From an uncultured Burkholderiales bacterium (GTDB lineage: Bacteria > Pseudomonadota > Gammaproteobacteria > Burkholderiales > Burkholderiaceae_D): DNA of 64,000 bases. Positions 1,115 through 59,001 of the stretch are shown here, piece by piece. Positions within the stretch are counted from its first letter, which is position 1. Each line of letters starts with the position of its first letter. The stretch is from positions 3,482 to 67,481 of the forward strand of contig CBIHON010000017.1 in NCBI GenBank assembly GCA_966211965.1, in the 5' to 3' direction. Made by a program: the position numbers and the translations under genes. Under the pieces are notes generated by a model. That model saw nothing but the letters and a program-made list of their open reading frames with translations. It had not been told where the DNA came from and did no database searches.

Positions 1115-1830
1115 GGACGGATTCCTTTGATGAGAGGGGCATTCAATTCCGCGAGTTGTTCCGGCGTGCCGACATTGCTCCAGTCGCCCCGATACACTTC
1201 GCCGCCGATCCGGCCGCGCTCCGCGTATTCCCGGATCAGGGGGCCGAGCTTGGCCGATTCGCCGGGCACGATGCGATCGAACATCTCGGGCCGGTACACG
1301 CCGATATTGGCGAAGGTATGCATCGGCTCACCCTGGTTGACCACGGAAAAACTGTTCAGCGCGAAGTCGCCCTTTGGATGGTAGGACGGATTCTTCACCA
1401 GGTAGATCCAGGCAATGTCGCGCTCGTCGCGCGGTATCGGATTGCCCCAGGCATCATGGTCTTCCAGCGTGTTCTTGACCTGCTCGAAATTGAAGTGCGG
1501 TATGTAGATGTCGCCCGACACCACGAGGAACGGCTCTTCTCCCAACAGGTGAAGCGCCTTGGCGATGCCGCCTGCGGTTTCCAGCGCGGTGCCTTCGGGC
1601 GAATAGGCCAGACGCGCGCCGAAGCGGGTGCCGTCGCCCAGCGCGTCTTCGATCATCTGGCCCAGGTGGGCGTGGTTGATCACGATCTCCGTGATGCCGG
1701 CACGCACCAGGTTCAGGATCTGCCAGACGATCAGCGGCCGGCCGCGCACTTTCAAGAGCGGCTTGGGGCAGGTGTCGGTCAGCGGACGCATACGTTCGCC
1801 GCGTCCGGCGGCGAGGATCATGGCTTTCAT
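1111..1830 (-). CDS. murU: N-acetylmuramate alpha-1-phosphate uridylyltransferase (MurU-like sugar nucleotidyltransferase)
   Basis: ORF 1111..1893. The N-terminus MKAMILAAGRGERMRPLT is a classic nucleotidyltransferase G-rich loop. Start chosen at the internal ATG at 1830. It lies immediately downstream of the amgK-like kinase, as in the Pseudomonas amgK-murU pair. Confidence 0.8.
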   Translation of the reverse strand: MKAMILAAGRGERMRPLTDTCPKPLLKVRGRPLIVWQILNLVRAGITEIVINHAHLGQMIEDALGDGTRFGARLAYSPEGTALETAGGIAKALHLLGEEPFLVVSGDIYIPHFNFEQVKNTLEDHDAWGNPIPRDERDIAWIYLVKNPSYHPKGDFALNSFSVVNQGEPMHTFANIGVYRPEMFDRIVPGESAKLGPLIREYAERGRIGGEVYRGDWSNVGTPEQLAELNAPLIKGIRP

Positions 1831-22328: not shown

Positions 22329-24821
<2,493 letters not shown>

Positions 24822-24870: not shown

Positions 24871-24912
24871 TGGATGGCTGAGGGGAGTTCCCCTCAGCCA
24901 TTTGTTTTTTTG
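24871..24912 (+). terminator. Intrinsic terminator downstream of rpoD, shared with the convergent giant gene
   Basis: ATGGCTGAGGGGA-gtt-TCCCCTCAGCCAT followed by TTGTTTTTTT. Confidence 0.7.
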
Positions 24913-24926
24913 CATGGAGGGACTAT

Positions 24927-27900
24927 CTATTTATGCTTGTCCCCATCCTTGGCGGAAGCCGGCGCGGCAGGCGTCTTCGCTCTCGACACTCGCAAGTGCA
25001 TCAGGCGCTGTTCCAGCTCCTTCACGTTCGCCGACATCTCCCGCACGCTGTCCCAGATGCTGTGGTCCAGCCGCATCTTGTGATTCATCGCACTGATCAT
25101 CGGCAATAGCGTCTGTTCATAGCTATCGGCGAGGCGTGCGATCGCGGTCTGCAGCAATTCTTGCTCCGGCAGATTGACCTGCACATCCGGCGTCAGGCGT
25201 CGGCCGAGAGCGGCAATCTGCTGGCTGATATCCGAGAGCAGATTGGCCACCTTGGTCGCGCCATCGGCATCCGCGCCGCCCTGCTTGCGCAGCCGCACGA
25301 AATCCTGCACCAGTGCCTGCCAGCGGGCTTGCTCCCCGGCGTCCGGCCGGCCCAGCAGATGCGCCAGCTTCAGCAGGTTTTCCTCGGCACCGGTCGTCAG
25401 GGTTTGCGCTTCGCCGCGATAATGGTCGCGCAACAGATCATCCAATTCCTCATCGCGCATGATGGCCGAGACCTTTGGCGTCAGCTTGCTCATGTTGCGG
25501 TAACTGCCCTGCAATTTGAACGGCGGCTCGGTGCGGTAGACATCGTCTTGCGCGGCCGACGCGATATAGGCAAGGTTCACCTCCAGCAGCGCATCGCGCA
25601 CCTTGAACAGGCGTTGCAATACCGCGCAGATTTCGCTTATCTCCTGCTGGCTGTAGGCGTGCTTCAATTCGGTGGCGGGAATCGGCTCGCCCTGCGCCAT
25701 GCGGATCAGGCGATGCACGTCTTGCGGCTCGCGCGCCGCCAGCGGTTGCAAGACCGGATGCGAGACCAGCGCGTTTTCGATATACGACATGGCGAACACT
25801 TCCTCGCGTCCGCTCAGCACGTCGCCCAGGTTGTAGATGTCGGCGCGGTTGGCCAGCATGTCGGGAATCTTGAACATGTCGCCCGACTCGGTATAAGGGT
25901 TGCCGGCCATGACGATCGCGAAGCGCTTGCCGCGCAGATCGTAGGTCCGGCTTTCTCCGCGCCAGACGCCTTCGATGCGCCGCGTGCCGTCGGCCAGCGC
26001 GATGAACTTTTGCAGGAACTCGGGATGCGTATGCTGGATATCGTCCAGGTAGAGCATCACGTTGTTGCCCATCGCCAGACCCAGATTGAGCTTCTCCAGC
26101 TCGGTGCGCGCCGCGCTGTTGGCGGCTTGCGCCGGGTCGAGCGATGTCACGTCGTGACCCAGCACCGGGCAATTGATGCGCACGAAAATCATGCCGAGGC
26201 GGTCGCCCAGGTATTCCATCAGCGTGGTCTTGCCGTATCCCGGCGGCGAGATCAAGAGCAGCATGCCCATCGAATCGGTGCGGCGTTGGTCGCCCGCCGC
26301 GCCGATCTGCTTGGCCAGGTTGTCGCCGACCATCGGCAGATAGACTTCATCGATCAGCTTGTTGCGCACGAAGCTCGACAGCGGCTTGGCCTGAAATTGT
26401 TCCAGCCGCAGGCGCGCTTTTTCTTCCTGTATCAACGTCTGGCGCAATTGCTGCAGTTGCTGCCAGGCCGGTACGGTCACTTGCGTGTGGTGCCGCAGCC
26501 GGCGCATGAAGTCGTTCAGTTGCAGGTTGAGGCCTTGATTGTTCAGCAGCGCGTGTTCGCCCAATAAGCCGGTTATCTGCCCCTGCAGTTCAGCCGCCTG
26601 AATCCGGCGCGGCAGTTGACATAACAGAGCCGCGGCAGTTTCCGGCAGCAGGGTCAAATCCTGCTGCTGTTGTCCGATATAGCCATGCAGCCATTCAGTT
26701 GCGAGTTGCCAGCGTTCGCGCCAGCTTAGGGTTTCGTCCTGCCAGGGTAGTGCGATGCCGTGACGGCTCAGGTGCTGTTGCAGTCCTTGCGCCAGATCCG
26801 AGGCCGCACGGCTCAAGACCCATTCATGCGCCTGGGCGCGGTTTGCGCTGCCGGCTTGGGTGCCGAGTTCTGCCAACAGATACGCTGCGCTTTGCTCCAG
26901 GAGCATCGCCGGCGATTCAGTCACGGTATCCAGCCAGCTTTCGATCGCCAGTTGCTGCTGTGTCAGGAATTTTTGCAGCGCTTGGTGGAGTTGGGCCAGG
27001 ATTTGCTGCCATAGGCGGTCACTGCCAAATTGGCGGCGCATCAGTTCGGCTTGCTCGGCCTGGTGCTTGAGCGTTTGTGCGGACACCTGCAGGCTGGGCG
27101 TTGCACTCAGGTGCTGCCAGTACAGTAGCGCGACTGCGCGTGCCAGAGGGCTGTAACGCAACAAGCCGGCATTTTCATACAACGGCACCAATTGCCGCAG
27201 GATGCAGGCGGCGTCGTGGTCGTGTATCCCTTTCTGATAACCCTCGTGATAACGCGGGGCGGCAAAGCGCCGCACACGTTCATCCAATTGCTGCTTATCG
27301 GACTGGCGCACCGCGTCGAGCAAGGCGGCCCAATTCCAGTCATCGGCTTCCGCTTGCGCGGTCAGCATGATTTTGTAAGCCAGGTATTCGGCGCGATAGA
27401 CCCGCGGACTTTCGGCCAGGTTTTCCTGTCCCCAGTATGGCTTCAAGATTTCCAGGCGCGGCTCTTCCACCGGCGAAAAATAATCGGTACCGGTCAGGTG
27501 ATAGGCCAGCTGCTCCTGGCGCGATACGATGGTCAGGTCGAGCGCTTGCTGGTTGACCGTGAAGGCGTGGCGGCCGAGACGTATCGTGTTGCCGCTTACC
27601 AGTTCGTTGCGGTCGCGCAGCGCGCGCTGGCCCTGGTCGCGCAGATTCTTGAGCTGGCCTGCCAGGTCGTCGGCAGCGACACTATTGCCGAGCTTGCGCA
27701 ATTCTTCGATGCTGGCCTTGAGCTTGTTGAGCAGCGCGTCCGATGCGAAATAGGCTTCGAGCTGGGCCGCTTCAGTCAATTGCGTCAGGCGCTTCGGTAC
27801 CCCGGCCAATATCCGGCGCGACGCATCCATGATGGCCTGCACCCGGCGCGCACGGGCATCGAGCAAGGCCTGCTTGCGGCTTTCCATTGCTTCGTACACC

Positions 27901-30215
27901 GATTCACGCTTGTGGGCGATTTCGGCCAGATAGTCTTCCTGCTCGGCGAAGCGGCCCTCCAGATCTTCCATCTGCGCCAGCAGGCGGGTCAGCAATTCAT
28001 CGCAGCGCTCCGGCGTTTCCGCCTGTTCCAGCGCGCTTTCGACGGATTGCCCGAACAGTTGGAACTGTGCCGCGAATTCGGCCGCCGACTCGCCTTGCGA
28101 CAATTGCTTGCGGCGCTGGCGTGCTTCGGCGCGCAGCTTGTTGACTTCGGCATAGATGCCGGAAATGGTGTTGAGGATGCGGGTGCGCAAGGTGGTGTCG
28201 CCGACCGCCAGCGTGCCGAGCAATTCGGTTAGTCCATCCAGGTTGTGCGCGCTGCGGTCCAGTGCTTCATGCAGCGGCGCCAATTCCGCTGTCGAGTGCA
28301 GATTGGGCAGTTGCGCGCGTTGCCTGTTCAGATCCGCATTGATTTTGGCGAAAGCATCATCCTGCGCGAGAAATTGTACGGTGCGCTCGGCGACGCGGCT
28401 TTCCTCGGTGCCGAGTTCCGCATCCAGCCCGTCCAGGCGCGCCACGTCCATGTAGCGCTGTTCCTTCAAGCTGGCCAGCCGTCCGCGTGCAAGGCGGAGC
28501 TGGTCCAGCGCTTCGATGAAGTCGGTCGGCGATTGCCACAGTCGGCTGGCGGTTTCGGTCAGCAATTGGCGCTGCGCCTGTTCGGTCTGCTGCAGCGTAC
28601 GTTGCGCTTCGCGCTGGACCGCCGCCATCTTATCGAATTCGTCCAGCGTTGCGCTCGCCACCTCGATCATGCCGCGCACTTCAGCGCCGGCCTGCTGCGC
28701 TTCCTCGGCTCCCAGCCAGTAGTAGGCATCGGCCACGCGGCGGCATTGCTTGATCAGGGTTTCATAGACGAAGCGGGTCGGTAGCTGGTCCCGGCTTGCT
28801 TCGCCCTGTTCACGCACCAGTTTCGCGATCGAATACAACTCGGACAAACCGCGCACCAATTCGCGATTGCCGATCTTGCCGAAAAAAGTCTGGCGCGGCG
28901 CTTGCTGCGCTGCATGCTCATCGCTCAGGAAAGGGGTTTGCCACAGCTGCATCGCGTGGTTGCGTGTCGGTTCGTCGTTCTCGGCGGTAAACAGCAGCAT
29001 GCGGCCATCGTCGAAGCGGGCGTAACCGTGCGCCACCAGCGGCTGTTCCAGCGTCTTGTTGATCAGGTTGTAAGTCAACAGCACGTACACGCCGTGCTCG
29101 ACGCCGTAGAATACATACAGCACGTCTTCGCCGTTCGGGGCCAGCACCCGGCGCTTGAATTGGAGGCCGGCCGGCAGGTCGGCAAACAGCTTGTATTCGC
29201 CGCTTTGCAGGATATAACCATCGGGGAAAACGATGCCGTGGTCTTCCGGCAATTGCACGCAAGAGGCGCCGATCGCATCGACCCGCGTCACCTGCCGTGT
29301 GCGGCGATTGAAGACCAAGTGACGCACCTGGGTTTCCCGATAAGGTTTGATGCGCAGCAGAATCAGTTCTCCTACTGCGGCATAGGCGATGTCTGCATCG
29401 TTCAACGATTGATTGCGATCCTCCACCGGCTCGCTATAGATGCCGAGACCGGTTTCGGTATTGTTCTCGATTTTGACGGTCAGGTCGCCGCCGATGGTTT
29501 CGACGAACAGGGTGTCGAGCACGTTGATATGCGGATGCTTGCCGAGCACATGCTGCTCGCGCGTGGTCGGCGTCCATTCGAAGTCATGCGCCGGCGGCAG
29601 GGCGATATCGCGTTCGCCGCGATTATCGATATAGCTGACTTCGCCGCTGTCCTTGAGCTGCCAGCGGAACACCCGCACATCGCTGATGCGTTCGCCGATT
29701 TTGAAGGCGGCCAGAAGCTTGCCTTGATGCACGCGCAACTGCACCAGCTGCGCGTTGCGATAATAGTTGTAGAGTTCCTTGAATTCGGCGACGAAACGCG
29801 TATCGTCCAAAAAGGTCTGTTCCAGCTTGAGCGCTTCAAGCTCGGCTTGCTCGCCGTCCTGGCGCAAGCGATACAAGCCGAACACGTCCGCGACCCTGGT
29901 TTCCTGACGCAAGCCGATGAAGACGTTGTAGCCGAACACCAGCACATCGCCGACCAGTACCAGGTCGCGTGCGACGCAATTGTTTTCGGTACGGGCACGG
30001 GTGCGGGCGCGCAACACCATGTCTTCGCGACCGAACTCGGCCAGCCGCGCCTTATTCAGGATGCCGGCCTTTTCCAGCAGCGTCTTGCCTTGCGCGCTCA
30101 AGCGCTTGCGCAGCAGATCGAAACTGCTGGAATGGGCCACTGCTTGCGCGACTTTGTTGTCGCCGGCGTCCGGGTTTTCGGCTTGGCGGGCGTCTTCGGT
30201 TTGGGCGTCGCTCAT
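24927..30215 (-). CDS. Giant (~1760 aa) uncharacterised protein with a beta-rich N-terminal domain, a long helical/coiled-coil central region and a single C-terminal AAA+ ATPase domain
   Basis: ORF 24927..30284. The likely start is the ATG at 30215 (MSDAQTED), 5 bp after the zf-TFIIB stop. Walker A is ISPPGYGKTTLMEY, Walker B VMLYLDDIQ and sensor-1 FAIVMAGNPY, all near residues 1270-1400. The central region is Q/A/E/L-rich (residues ~500-1000). No other P-loop was found. Confidence 0.8.
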   Translation of the reverse strand: MSDAQTEDARQAENPDAGDNKVAQAVAHSSSFDLLRKRLSAQGKTLLEKAGILNKARLAEFGREDMVLRARTRARTENNCVARDLVLVGDVLVFGYNVFIGLRQETRVADVFGLYRLRQDGEQAELEALKLEQTFLDDTRFVAEFKELYNYYRNAQLVQLRVHQGKLLAAFKIGERISDVRVFRWQLKDSGEVSYIDNRGERDIALPPAHDFEWTPTTREQHVLGKHPHINVLDTLFVETIGGDLTVKIENNTETGLGIYSEPVEDRNQSLNDADIAYAAVGELILLRIKPYRETQVRHLVFNRRTRQVTRVDAIGASCVQLPEDHGIVFPDGYILQSGEYKLFADLPAGLQFKRRVLAPNGEDVLYVFYGVEHGVYVLLTYNLINKTLEQPLVAHGYARFDDGRMLLFTAENDEPTRNHAMQLWQTPFLSDEHAAQQAPRQTFFGKIGNRELVRGLSELYSIAKLVREQGEASRDQLPTRFVYETLIKQCRRVADAYYWLGAEEAQQAGAEVRGMIEVASATLDEFDKMAAVQREAQRTLQQTEQAQRQLLTETASRLWQSPTDFIEALDQLRLARGRLASLKEQRYMDVARLDGLDAELGTEESRVAERTVQFLAQDDAFAKINADLNRQRAQLPNLHSTAELAPLHEALDRSAHNLDGLTELLGTLAVGDTTLRTRILNTISGIYAEVNKLRAEARQRRKQLSQGESAAEFAAQFQLFGQSVESALEQAETPERCDELLTRLLAQMEDLEGRFAEQEDYLAEIAHKRESVYEAMESRKQALLDARARRVQAIMDASRRILAGVPKRLTQLTEAAQLEAYFASDALLNKLKASIEELRKLGNSVAADDLAGQLKNLRDQGQRALRDRNELVSGNTIRLGRHAFTVNQQALDLTIVSRQEQLAYHLTGTDYFSPVEEPRLEILKPYWGQENLAESPRVYRAEYLAYKIMLTAQAEADDWNWAALLDAVRQSDKQQLDERVRRFAAPRYHEGYQKGIHDHDAACILRQLVPLYENAGLLRYSPLARAVALLYWQHLSATPSLQVSAQTLKHQAEQAELMRRQFGSDRLWQQILAQLHQALQKFLTQQQLAIESWLDTVTESPAMLLEQSAAYLLAELGTQAGSANRAQAHEWVLSRAASDLAQGLQQHLSRHGIALPWQDETLSWRERWQLATEWLHGYIGQQQQDLTLLPETAAALLCQLPRRIQAAELQGQITGLLGEHALLNNQGLNLQLNDFMRRLRHHTQVTVPAWQQLQQLRQTLIQEEKARLRLEQFQAKPLSSFVRNKLIDEVYLPMVGDNLAKQIGAAGDQRRTDSMGMLLLISPPGYGKTTLMEYLGDRLGMIFVRINCPVLGHDVTSLDPAQAANSAARTELEKLNLGLAMGNNVMLYLDDIQHTHPEFLQKFIALADGTRRIEGVWRGESRTYDLRGKRFAIVMAGNPYTESGDMFKIPDMLANRADIYNLGDVLSGREEVFAMSYIENALVSHPVLQPLAAREPQDVHRLIRMAQGEPIPATELKHAYSQQEISEICAVLQRLFKVRDALLEVNLAYIASAAQDDVYRTEPPFKLQGSYRNMSKLTPKVSAIMRDEELDDLLRDHYRGEAQTLTTGAEENLLKLAHLLGRPDAGEQARWQALVQDFVRLRKQGGADADGATKVANLLSDISQQIAALGRRLTPDVQVNLPEQELLQTAIARLADSYEQTLLPMISAMNHKMRLDHSIWDSVREMSANVKELEQRLMHLRVSRAKTPAAPASAKDGDKHK

Positions 30216-30795: not shown

Positions 30796-30889
30796 GGGCG
30801 GACACGGCTTGATCGTGCTCGCGTGCAAGCTTCGATCAGGGCGCATGTTTTTAAGGTCACGCATGGGCACGATCAAGCCGTGCCCGCCC
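30796..30889. repeat. Intra-operon inverted repeat (23-bp arms, one mismatch, ~48-nt spacer) between the flotillin and zinc-ribbon genes
   Basis: GGGCGGACACGGCTTGATCGTGC (30796-30818) pairs with GCACGATCAAGCCGTGCCCGCCC (30867-30889). Confidence 0.6.
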
Positions 30890-34932: not shown

Positions 34933-35361
34933 TTATTTCAGAAATTCAGTGAACACTTCCAAGGCTTCGATGGCATTGTCGGCTACCATCGCCACATCGG
35001 TCGCGATATCTTCGACCCGCGAATCGTGGGCCAGCGAGCCATAAATCACATAGTGCCGGCCAATGCGGCCGAAGTCGGAAAGAGGAATGGAAATATTCAA
35101 GTCGATCATCGCCTCCAGCATCTCGGCACGGCGTTCCGGTTTGATTTCATCTTCGGTCCAGAGATAGCAGATGCAGAGGACCTGCGTCGGCGAGATCGTC
35201 ACGAATACCGGCAGTTCTTCCTGGCCTTCGATACTGATGCGCATCACGGGGACGCCGCCCGGTTCGGTCGCGGGCAGCAGGCTGCTGCTGACGCCGATCG
35301 ATCCCAGGCGCTGGGACAACGCTGTTTCAATCCCAAGCAATTGGCGCATTGTTTCTTCCAT
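34933..35361 (-). CDS. First gene of the operon; possible YjfI-like (DUF2170) protein
   Basis: ORF 34933..35421. The internal ATG at 35361 is preceded by the perfect RBS AAGGAGGAACC-ATG. Family assignment is tentative and rests on adjacency to the YjfJ-like PspA homologue. Confidence 0.5.
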   Translation of the reverse strand: MEETMRQLLGIETALSQRLGSIGVSSSLLPATEPGGVPVMRISIEGQEELPVFVTISPTQVLCICYLWTEDEIKPERRAEMLEAMIDLNISIPLSDFGRIGRHYVIYGSLAHDSRVEDIATDVAMVADNAIEALEVFTEFLK

Positions 35362-35416
35362 GGTTCCTCCTTGCGTGGCGCTGCTGGTTTTTGTATTCGT
35401 TGAGGTAGTCGGCGAA

Positions 35417-35457
35417 GACATATTATGTCAAAGTATAAGTGTCCGACATAAAATGTC
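35417..35457. promoter_or_regulatory. Promoter of the seven-gene operon with two 13-bp operator palindromes (GACATATTATGTC and GACATAAAATGTC)
   Basis: Read on the minus strand the sequence is TTGACA-N16-TATACT. The -35 element lies inside palindrome 2 (35445-35457) and palindrome 1 (35417-35429) covers the predicted transcription start. The palindromes are about 28 bp apart centre to centre. Confidence 0.55.
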
Positions 35458-58924: not shown

Positions 58925-59001
58925 TGGTGGTGATAGGTGGACTTGAACCACCGACCCCAGCATTATGAGTGCTGTGCTCTAACCAGCTGAGCTATATCAC
59001 C
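58925..59001 (-). tRNA. tRNA-Met (anticodon CAT), elongator type
   Basis: Reverse complement GGTGATATAGCTCAGCTGGTTAGAGCACAGCACTCATAATGCTGGGGTCGGTGGTTCAAGTCCACCTATCACCACCA. It has a 7-bp acceptor stem, D-loop AGCTCAGCTGGTTAGAGC, anticodon loop CTCATAA and T-arm GGTTCAAGTCC; CCA is encoded. The sequence is close to E. coli metT. A hairpin plus T-rich tract lies downstream at about 58890-58925. Confidence 0.85.

Follow-up and report, generated by a model that had tools for sequence, protein, structure and literature searches.

In a 64,000-nucleotide stretch of an uncultured Burkholderiales genome (assembly GCA_966211965.1, contig CBIHON010000017.1, positions 3,482 to 67,481; hereafter the window), we analysed a giant ATPase whose gene seems to be expressed at the end of a seven-gene operon that also encodes PspA, a YqiJ-like membrane protein and a flotillin. 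The ATPase belongs, as an ordinary member, to a family that is widespread, catalogued and functionally uncharacterised, and it is not categorically new. Across related loci, the YqiJ-like protein, the flotillin and the ATPase form the invariant unit, with PspA-YjfI as a frequent add-on that is not obligatory. We propose, with moderate confidence, that the ATPase acts as an AAA+ remodeller coupled to flotillin/NfeD and serves a PspA module for envelope stress.

Pfam searches assigned residues 46-499 of the ATPase to DUF3686 (E = 8e-199; 661 bits against a cut-off of 25; profile positions 2-448 of 448), residues 620-704 to DUF7902 (E = 2.8e-23; 82 bits against 26) and residues 1319-1442 to AAA_5 (E = 2.5e-6; 28 bits against 22). 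The original prediction, made from the sequence without database searches, had placed this architecture in no known family. That claim fell with the DUF3686 and DUF7902 matches, the NCBI product name carried by most homologs, 'DNA repair ATPase', and a published account of the system (PMC11237479). Pfam similarly describes DUF3686 as 'ATPase involved in DNA repair'. We also asked whether any characterised family of established function matched the ATPase with confidence; the family found is named and uncharacterised. NCBIfam and PADLOC searches of the ATPase gave nothing meaningful, and sequence searches of the PDB with the whole protein and with its AAA+ region gave P-loop-level matches to RuvB and ClpE and nothing more. 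Literature searches for DUF3686, PF12458 or 'DNA repair ATPase' with flotillin found nothing, and those for YqiK with AAA+ found nothing relevant.

The family is large and taxonomically broad. A word-indexed search recovered 4080 homologs at E <= 1e-3, the nearest named ones from Janthinobacterium and Massilia, which assigns the window to an Oxalobacteraceae bacterium. HMMER, run with residues 1-1200 against 1.84 billion cluster representatives, recovered 1280 clusters at E <= 1e-3, of which 408 reach E <= 1e-30. When one genome per species was scanned, at least 589 of 185,579 species-representative genomes carried the gene, including, among the matches listed, Beta- and Gammaproteobacteria, Myxococcota and Zetaproteobacteria. 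When a member of 26% identity served as seed, Bacteroidota, a Lachnospiraceae metagenome-assembled genome and Actinomycetota were recovered in addition, with the Pfam architecture unchanged. Exactly one PGYGKT motif is present in 72 of 73 full-length representatives, at about residues 1140-1510 and mostly at 1230-1350. Carriers include Pseudomonas fluorescens SBW25 (pQBR103), Stenotrophomonas maltophilia, Proteus, Providencia and Variovorax. Plasmid copies occur in 13 of 72,556 plasmid records, mostly megaplasmids or chromids, and a phage search found none. One distant member (P0283) is fused to ankyrin repeats, and ankyrin-repeat genes surround another distant locus (L086 in our numbering), an association that suggests variants linked to a host or to eukaryote-like proteins.

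To define the conserved neighbourhood, we compared the operon proteins with 84 related loci by tblastn and counted partners in the 67 loci whose upstream flank is complete. A flotillin homolog lies directly upstream in 67/67 loci and a YqiJ-like gene is present in 65; PspA follows with 39, DUF2170 with 36, a PLD/HKD-family gene with 22, the small 116-residue protein with 20 and the Zn-ribbon protein with 15. This conserved neighbourhood matches the link to flotillin and PspA that had been raised from the window alone. In members only 26-30% identical to the query, a ~210-residue gene and then a ~650-residue gene stand directly upstream, and the 650-residue product was Band_7-positive in one case. 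Among the loci of these distant members, PspA lies ~6 kb downstream in L086 and is absent from L087 and L088. On pQBR103 (L089; NC_009444.1 85395-104596), the YqiJ-like, SPFH and ATPase genes form a triad joined to an operon of the PspA-YjfKLMC type. The cluster directly before that triad holds PspA, rhomboid, DUF2491, DUF350, DUF1190 and glutathionylspermidine-synthase-like genes, and pQBR103 in this way joins two PspA operon classes that are given separately in PMC11237479. The position of the Zn-ribbon gene, compared between the window and L024, L031, L033, L049 and L074, also varies, from the flotillin-ATPase gap in Burkholderiales to downstream of the ATPase in several Gammaproteobacteria.

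The idea is not a new one: both the architecture and the operon were already published computationally in 2024. Ravi et al. (mSystems 2024; PMC11237479) described an ATPase with a beta-propeller, a coiled coil and an AAA+ domain in an operon of CesT/Tir (YjfI-like)-PspA, YqiJ/YuaF, Band-7/flotillin and ATPase, sometimes with a PLD/HKD hydrolase, and reported a wider spread for shortened operons of the form flotillin-YqiJ(-ATPase). Domain order, gene order and the occasional PLD/HKD gene are all as in our loci, and nothing essential differs; the window adds a Zn-ribbon gene in the flotillin-ATPase gap and a small protein, predicted to be a regulator, that has a palindrome upstream. Flavobacteriia and other Bacteroidota hold family members of identical Pfam architecture, and from architecture, context and taxonomy we infer that the Dokdonia ATPase of that study and the DUF3686 family are one.

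We next describe the ATPase itself, using two AlphaFold2 models, each built on a 75-sequence alignment: model 1 spans residues 1-870 (predicted local distance difference test (pLDDT) 90.8, predicted template-modelling score (pTM) 0.71) and model 2 residues 861-1762 (pLDDT 91.2, pTM 0.81). The lid position and the folds of the helical regions, like the propeller blade number, were read from the secondary-structure strings of these models. In model 2, the AAA+ core runs in the order beta1, P-loop, beta2, loop, alpha2, beta3 (Walker B), pre-sensor-1 hairpin, beta4 (sensor 1), alpha4 with IPDMLANRAD, and beta5. The original prediction was right that the protein has only one P-loop (SPPGYGKTT at residues 1323-1331 is unique), and roughly right in spacing Walker B and sensor 1 some 70-110 residues after it: D1391/D1392 lie ~62 and N1439 110 residues after K1329. 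Its view of a single C-terminal module of AAA_5/MoxR/dynein-like type also agrees with the AAA_5 score and with the structure matches of the core, which are led by dynein, midasin, CbbQ and NorQ, with a small margin over the Clp D2 group. The predicted fold places the module in the pre-sensor-1-hairpin group, structurally nearest to dynein, midasin and MoxR.

The active-site residues K1329, D1391, D1392, N1439, R1457 and R1573 are invariant in the family (columns K469, D531, D532, N579, R597 and R713 of alignment A2), and the nucleotide site looks catalytically competent. Because the trans-acting arginine R1457 is conserved, pointing to inter-subunit active sites, an oligomer is implied. R1573 is the putative sensor-2 arginine; it belongs to the invariant motif LQGSYRNM and lies, as read from the sequence, 134 residues past sensor 1, with ~100 residues of helices ahead of the motif in model 2. 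Walker B carries an invariant DD instead of DE in the family alignment. Low conservation marks the end of the protein, whose last 100 residues have pLDDT values of 34-79.

Comparison with AAA_5 proteins of the MoxR (CbbQ, NorQ, RavA), dynein and midasin types brings out both likeness and difference. The ATPase shares with them the pre-sensor-1 hairpin, the extra helices before sensor 2 and the AAA_5 match, its core resembles MoxR structures, and remodelling of a partner complex instead of degradation is a likely common mode of action. MoxR proteins, however, stand alone at ~300-350 residues, whereas the ATPase is ~six times larger, with ~1285 residues before its AAA+ core. They also have a VWA-domain partner in their operon, whereas none of the proteins of the ATPase operon matches a VWA family. 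The helix-2 beta-hairpin of MoxR-type proteins does not appear in the secondary-structure string of the ATPase model, and the Walker B of the ATPase differs in being DD.

Ahead of the core, model 1 predicts a beta-propeller of 27 strand elements as the core of DUF3686, consistent with about seven four-stranded blades, a count inferred from the DSSP string. The beta-rich region first read at residues ~80-500 is thus narrowed by the confident model to residues 67-426. Foldseek searches of the PDB with residues 1-870 returned mostly generic propellers (WD40, Kelch, prolyl oligopeptidase, clathrin terminal domain, IFT-A and Elp1) at ~10% identity and low TM-score, together with a few helical or dynein-type chains; as modelled, DUF3686 is a divergent propeller without a close solved relative. 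In the family alignment, the propeller residues HDF.W, H.HPH, ENNT and LPE.HGIIFPGGY are nearly invariant, and this conservation would point to a specific conserved binding partner.

Residues 444-869, read from the sequence as a ~500-residue coiled coil, are indeed Q/A/E/L/R-rich and wholly helical, with helices of up to 58 residues; the coiled coil was not established, model 1 packing these helices as a bundle (pTM 0.71) that includes DUF7902 (nucleotides 28104-28358). The leucine-rich helical repeat region described after it was recovered as helical in model 2 (residues ~940-1270) and is less conserved than any other part of the protein, with the minimum of the conservation profile at residues 1040-1210. 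A second, degenerate AAA domain in residues 870-1285 was considered and rejected for want of support. As the original prediction had stated, the hydropathy scan and the model gave no transmembrane segment: the sole hydrophobic window (residues 84-102; Kyte-Doolittle value 1.75) is a beta-strand of the propeller in the model and was rejected as a candidate. The ATPase is cytoplasmic and soluble.

In the mechanism that we propose for a flotillin/NfeD-coupled remodeller, AAA+ modules would assemble the ATPase into a ring, and the conserved propeller and helical platform would dock onto a cytoplasmic flotillin/YqiJ assembly. ATP would then be spent on remodelling this scaffold, whether by building it up, opening it or taking it apart, or by pulling clients out of it, and PspA would join as a membrane-repair partner under envelope stress. 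HflK/C-FtsH, in which an SPFH cage works with an AAA+ machine, offers a precedent. By analogy, both cases would couple an SPFH membrane scaffold to an AAA+ ATPase, a conceptual likeness; FtsH is a membrane-anchored protease of the classical clade, whereas our ATPase has no transmembrane segment and no M41 or other peptidase match and belongs to another AAA+ clade. Chaperone-like or ESCRT-like membrane roles have been proposed for the operon (PMC11237479), and, according to a passage in PMC10936438 that cites the finding, the Bacillus subtilis SPFH protein YdjI tethers PspA to the membrane. More tentatively, the family as a whole might be an ATP-driven bacterial membrane-scaffold remodeller, an independent counterpart of Vps4 derived from a dynein/MoxR-type core, which would grip flotillin (SPFH) cages and thereby control PspA/ESCRT-III polymers in membrane repair.

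Several points weigh against a flotillin-coupled remodeller. Gene neighbourhood is a functional link only and does not identify the substrate protein, and of at least 589 confirmed hits, our loci are the 80 closest to the query, which biases the percentages towards Proteobacteria. The flotillins of Escherichia coli and B. subtilis function without such an ATPase. Our literature search found no experiment on, or solved structure of, any family member. Within the module, the DD Walker B could mean slow, switch-like hydrolysis and not a motor. The beta2-alpha2 loop consensus (NGPALGH.VTSLDPA) has no aromatic pore-loop-1 motif, so that polypeptide threading in the style of Clp or Vps4 is doubtful; in the secondary-structure string of model 2, this segment (residues 1349-1366) is only short helix and coil.

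A rival reading makes the ATPase a Vps4 analogue that disassembles or recycles the PspA polymer, with the flotillin and YqiJ-like protein serving as a membrane platform only. PspA and YjfI are both in the operon here, PspA recurs in 39/67 loci and on pQBR103, and, as with Vps4/CdvC, the AAA+ gene stands beside a gene of the ESCRT-III superfamily here and in about half of the loci. The ESCRT-III/Vps4 analogy is itself drawn in PMC11237479, and the niche is open, since a 2025 review finds that a Vps4-like ATPase appears absent in bacteria. We nevertheless consider this reading unlikely. Among the 67 complete loci, 28 lack PspA, counted at the locus only and with PspA possible elsewhere in the genome, whereas none lacks flotillin, and PspA never adjoins the triad in the distant loci, so that it is dispensable for the gene association. 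Vps4 and CdvC are moreover classical AAA proteins with an MIT domain and an aromatic pore loop 1, and the ATPase has none of the three. It is quite unlikely, in our view, that the protein is instead an ATP-regulated scaffold or coat-like adaptor, its propeller and helical lattice lying on a flotillin microdomain and its AAA+ domain acting as an assembly switch. The top Foldseek matches of the N-terminal 870 residues do include proteins with a propeller and a helical solenoid (IFT-A, clathrin heavy chain, nucleoporins), but the coat-protein TM-scores of 0.1-0.17 at ~10% identity amount to generic propeller resemblance. The invariant DD of Walker B, which the slow ATPase DnaA also has, and the missing aromatic pore loop would fit such a switch; the invariant arginine finger, sensor 1 and sensor 2 argue for real hydrolysis.

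Defence systems often hold large ATPases with sensor domains, and a conflict or anti-phage role, in which the ATPase senses infection or membrane damage and a PLD-family (HKD) protein acts as effector in some loci, would accommodate the PLDc_2 gene that follows or accompanies the ATPase in 22/67 loci and the few megaplasmid copies. We regard this role as improbable: the best PADLOC match to the ATPase has E = 0.058 and covers the P-loop only, the PLD gene is absent from the operon in the window, phage copies are lacking and the rare plasmid copies sit mostly on chromids, the operon lies amid housekeeping genes, and the invariant partners are membrane scaffold proteins. Least credible is a genuine DNA repair ATPase, for which we give almost no chance. 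This reading draws on the Pfam description and NCBI product names and on a weak similarity to RuvB confined to the P-loop. RuvB models reach only 15-17 bits, with cut-offs of 282-299. Family searches of the ATPase show no DNA-binding, nuclease or SMC/ABC-type (SMC, SbcC) features, no repair gene is in the operon at any of the 87 loci inspected, the conserved neighbours are all membrane or stress proteins, and the literature search gave no paper tying DUF3686 or PF12458 to repair.

The product name 'DNA repair ATPase' is thus probably wrong and is better not propagated. The DUF3686 family offers a concrete candidate, open to testing, for the dismantling or reorganising of bacterial flotillin cages and PspA/ESCRT-III polymers. 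Tied to the flotillin/YqiJ pair and often near PspA, it is found in species amenable to experiment. The finding is probably of moderate interest despite the published architecture, given the candidate remodeller and the misleading database name.

The giant open reading frame (ORF) is real, although translation gives 1762 residues and not the 1760 first stated. It runs on the minus strand from ATG 30215 to a stop at 24927-24929. The longest mechanical ORF begins at GTG 30284 and runs into the end of the Zn-ribbon gene; this start is unlikely because the Zn-ribbon gene ends 5 nucleotides before ATG 30215. A database entry (P0001) is 100% identical to the ATPase, and the 4080 homologs exclude a chance ORF. 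Positions of all features are collected in Table 1.

Table 1. Positions in the window of the ATPase gene, its domains and motifs, the other operon genes and the control elements.
Feature	Residues	Nucleotides	Strand	Basis or remark
ATPase gene (DUF3686/DUF7902/AAA+)	1762 residues	24927..30215, including stop codon	-	ORF, translation, Pfam, homologs
N-terminal helical pair	15-61	30033..30173	-	Model 1, helices H15-27 and H30-61
Predicted beta-propeller, core of DUF3686	67-426	28938..30017	-	Model 1, 27 strand elements
All-helical bundle containing DUF7902	444-869	27609..28886	-	Model 1, helices H450-869, pLDDT mostly 80-97
Linker domain: five-strand beta unit (~877-915), then mostly helical	870-1285	26361..27608	-	Model 2
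AAA+ alpha/beta core	1286-1465	25821..26360	-	
Walker A SPPGYGKTT (K1329)	1323-1331	26223-26249	-	
Walker B VMLYLDD (D1391/D1392)	1386-1392	26040-26060	-	
Pre-sensor-1 beta-hairpin	1413-1426		-	Model 2
Sensor 1 AIVMAGNPY	N1439	25899-25901	-	
Box VII IPDMLANRAD	R1457	25845-25847	-	
Helical insertion and lid domain	1466-1645	25281..25820	-	Model 2 helices, invariant G/S/Y/R columns
Putative sensor-2 arginine	R1573	25497-25499		Invariant LQGSYRNM motif
Variable C-terminal long helix and disordered Lys/Pro/Ala tail	1646-1762	24930..25280	-	Low conservation
Zn-ribbon protein	177 residues	30221..30754	-	Pfam Zn_ribbon_TFIIB, E = 2e-12
Flotillin (YqiK-like SPFH)	731 residues	30903..33098	-	hhalign against E. 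coli YqiK, probability 99.9, E = 1.5e-33
YqiJ-like multi-transmembrane protein	224 residues	33132..33806	-	hhalign against E. coli YqiJ, probability 91.8, E = 7e-7
Small conserved protein between the PspA and YqiJ-like genes	116 residues	33859..34209	-	Homologs; no Pfam family
PspA/IM30 (ESCRT-III superfamily)	238 residues	34206..34922	-	Pfam PspA_IM30, E = 4e-33
YjfI/DUF2170		34933..35421	-	Pfam DUF2170, E = 1e-24
Sigma-70-like promoter TTGACA-16-TATACT		35459-35432	-	Promoter scan, 11/12 matches
Two exact palindromes GACAT-N3-ATGTC		35445-35457 and 35417-35429		Overlap the -35 box and start region of the promoter
15-bp-stem hairpin between the convergent ATPase gene and rpoD		24871..24904		Terminator scan, called for the + strand (rpoD)

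From 35421 down to 24927, every gene reads on the minus strand with little space between neighbours, and this tight spacing, together with the promoter and terminator, argues for a single operon. The terminator hairpin was called for rpoD, and we assume that the minus-strand operon transcript uses it as well. A sigma-54/PspF-type promoter was rejected by eye only, the sole upstream GG/GC pair (AGGCATGAATTGCA) being wrongly spaced.

The flotillin and the YqiJ-like protein were identified solely through hhalign comparison with E. coli YqiK and YqiJ; Pfam gave no match to either, even at E = 5. A family profile of the 731-residue flotillin found nothing among PDB sequences, and the protein had a weak PDB match to human flotillin-1. 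By hydropathy scan, the flotillin has one N-terminal transmembrane segment (residues 1-26), and the YqiJ-like protein has five overlapping transmembrane-like windows that make up about 3-4 segments. YjfI is a CesT/Tir-like protein (PMC11237479). Its annotated start, ATG 35421, lies inside both a palindrome and the promoter, and its alignments with homologs begin at residues 17-25; translation probably starts at ATG 35361 (M21).

The palindromes are probably the operator of the 116-residue protein, the predicted regulator of the operon. Both the 116-residue protein and its position are conserved, with ~60% identical homologs at the same place in the Moraxellaceae and Variovorax loci L001 and L003, and by eye, without tool support, it looks like two ribbon-helix-helix-like units. 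The window contains no further exact GACAT-N3-ATGTC copy in its 64 kb. Of 87 related loci, 23 have the gene of the 116-residue protein and 64 lack it; the palindrome is present in 21 of the former and in 0 of the latter (Fisher p = 3e-18, uncorrected for phylogeny). The 21 loci are L001, L003-L008, L010, L012, L013, L015-L018, L020, L023, L028, L042, L044, L063 and L078. It always stands upstream of the DUF2170 gene, including at loci where that module is divergent or remote.

Within the 148-nucleotide gap between the flotillin and Zn-ribbon genes, we observed a 23-nucleotide inverted repeat (30796-30818 and 30867-30889) that is 96% complementary around a 48-nucleotide spacer. Followed on the coding (minus) strand by an A-run and not a T-run, it is not a standard terminator; it may be a trace left when the Zn-ribbon gene was inserted, or else an RNA element.

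The operon is flanked by rpoD on one side and SDR (short-chain dehydrogenase/reductase)/aminotransferase genes on the other, all housekeeping genes. The rpoD ORF (22329-24821, plus strand) encodes 830 residues, with sigma-70 region 1.1 beginning only at residue 220, which indicates either that the N-terminus is extended by a long stretch or that the true start lies further downstream. About 300 nucleotides upstream of this ORF, Rfam placed a 'Betaproteobacteria toxic small RNA' (RF02278; 21968-22031, plus strand) at 52.5 bits against a gathering threshold of 50. The sole tRNA in the window is a tRNA-Met (CAT) at 58925-59001 on the minus strand.

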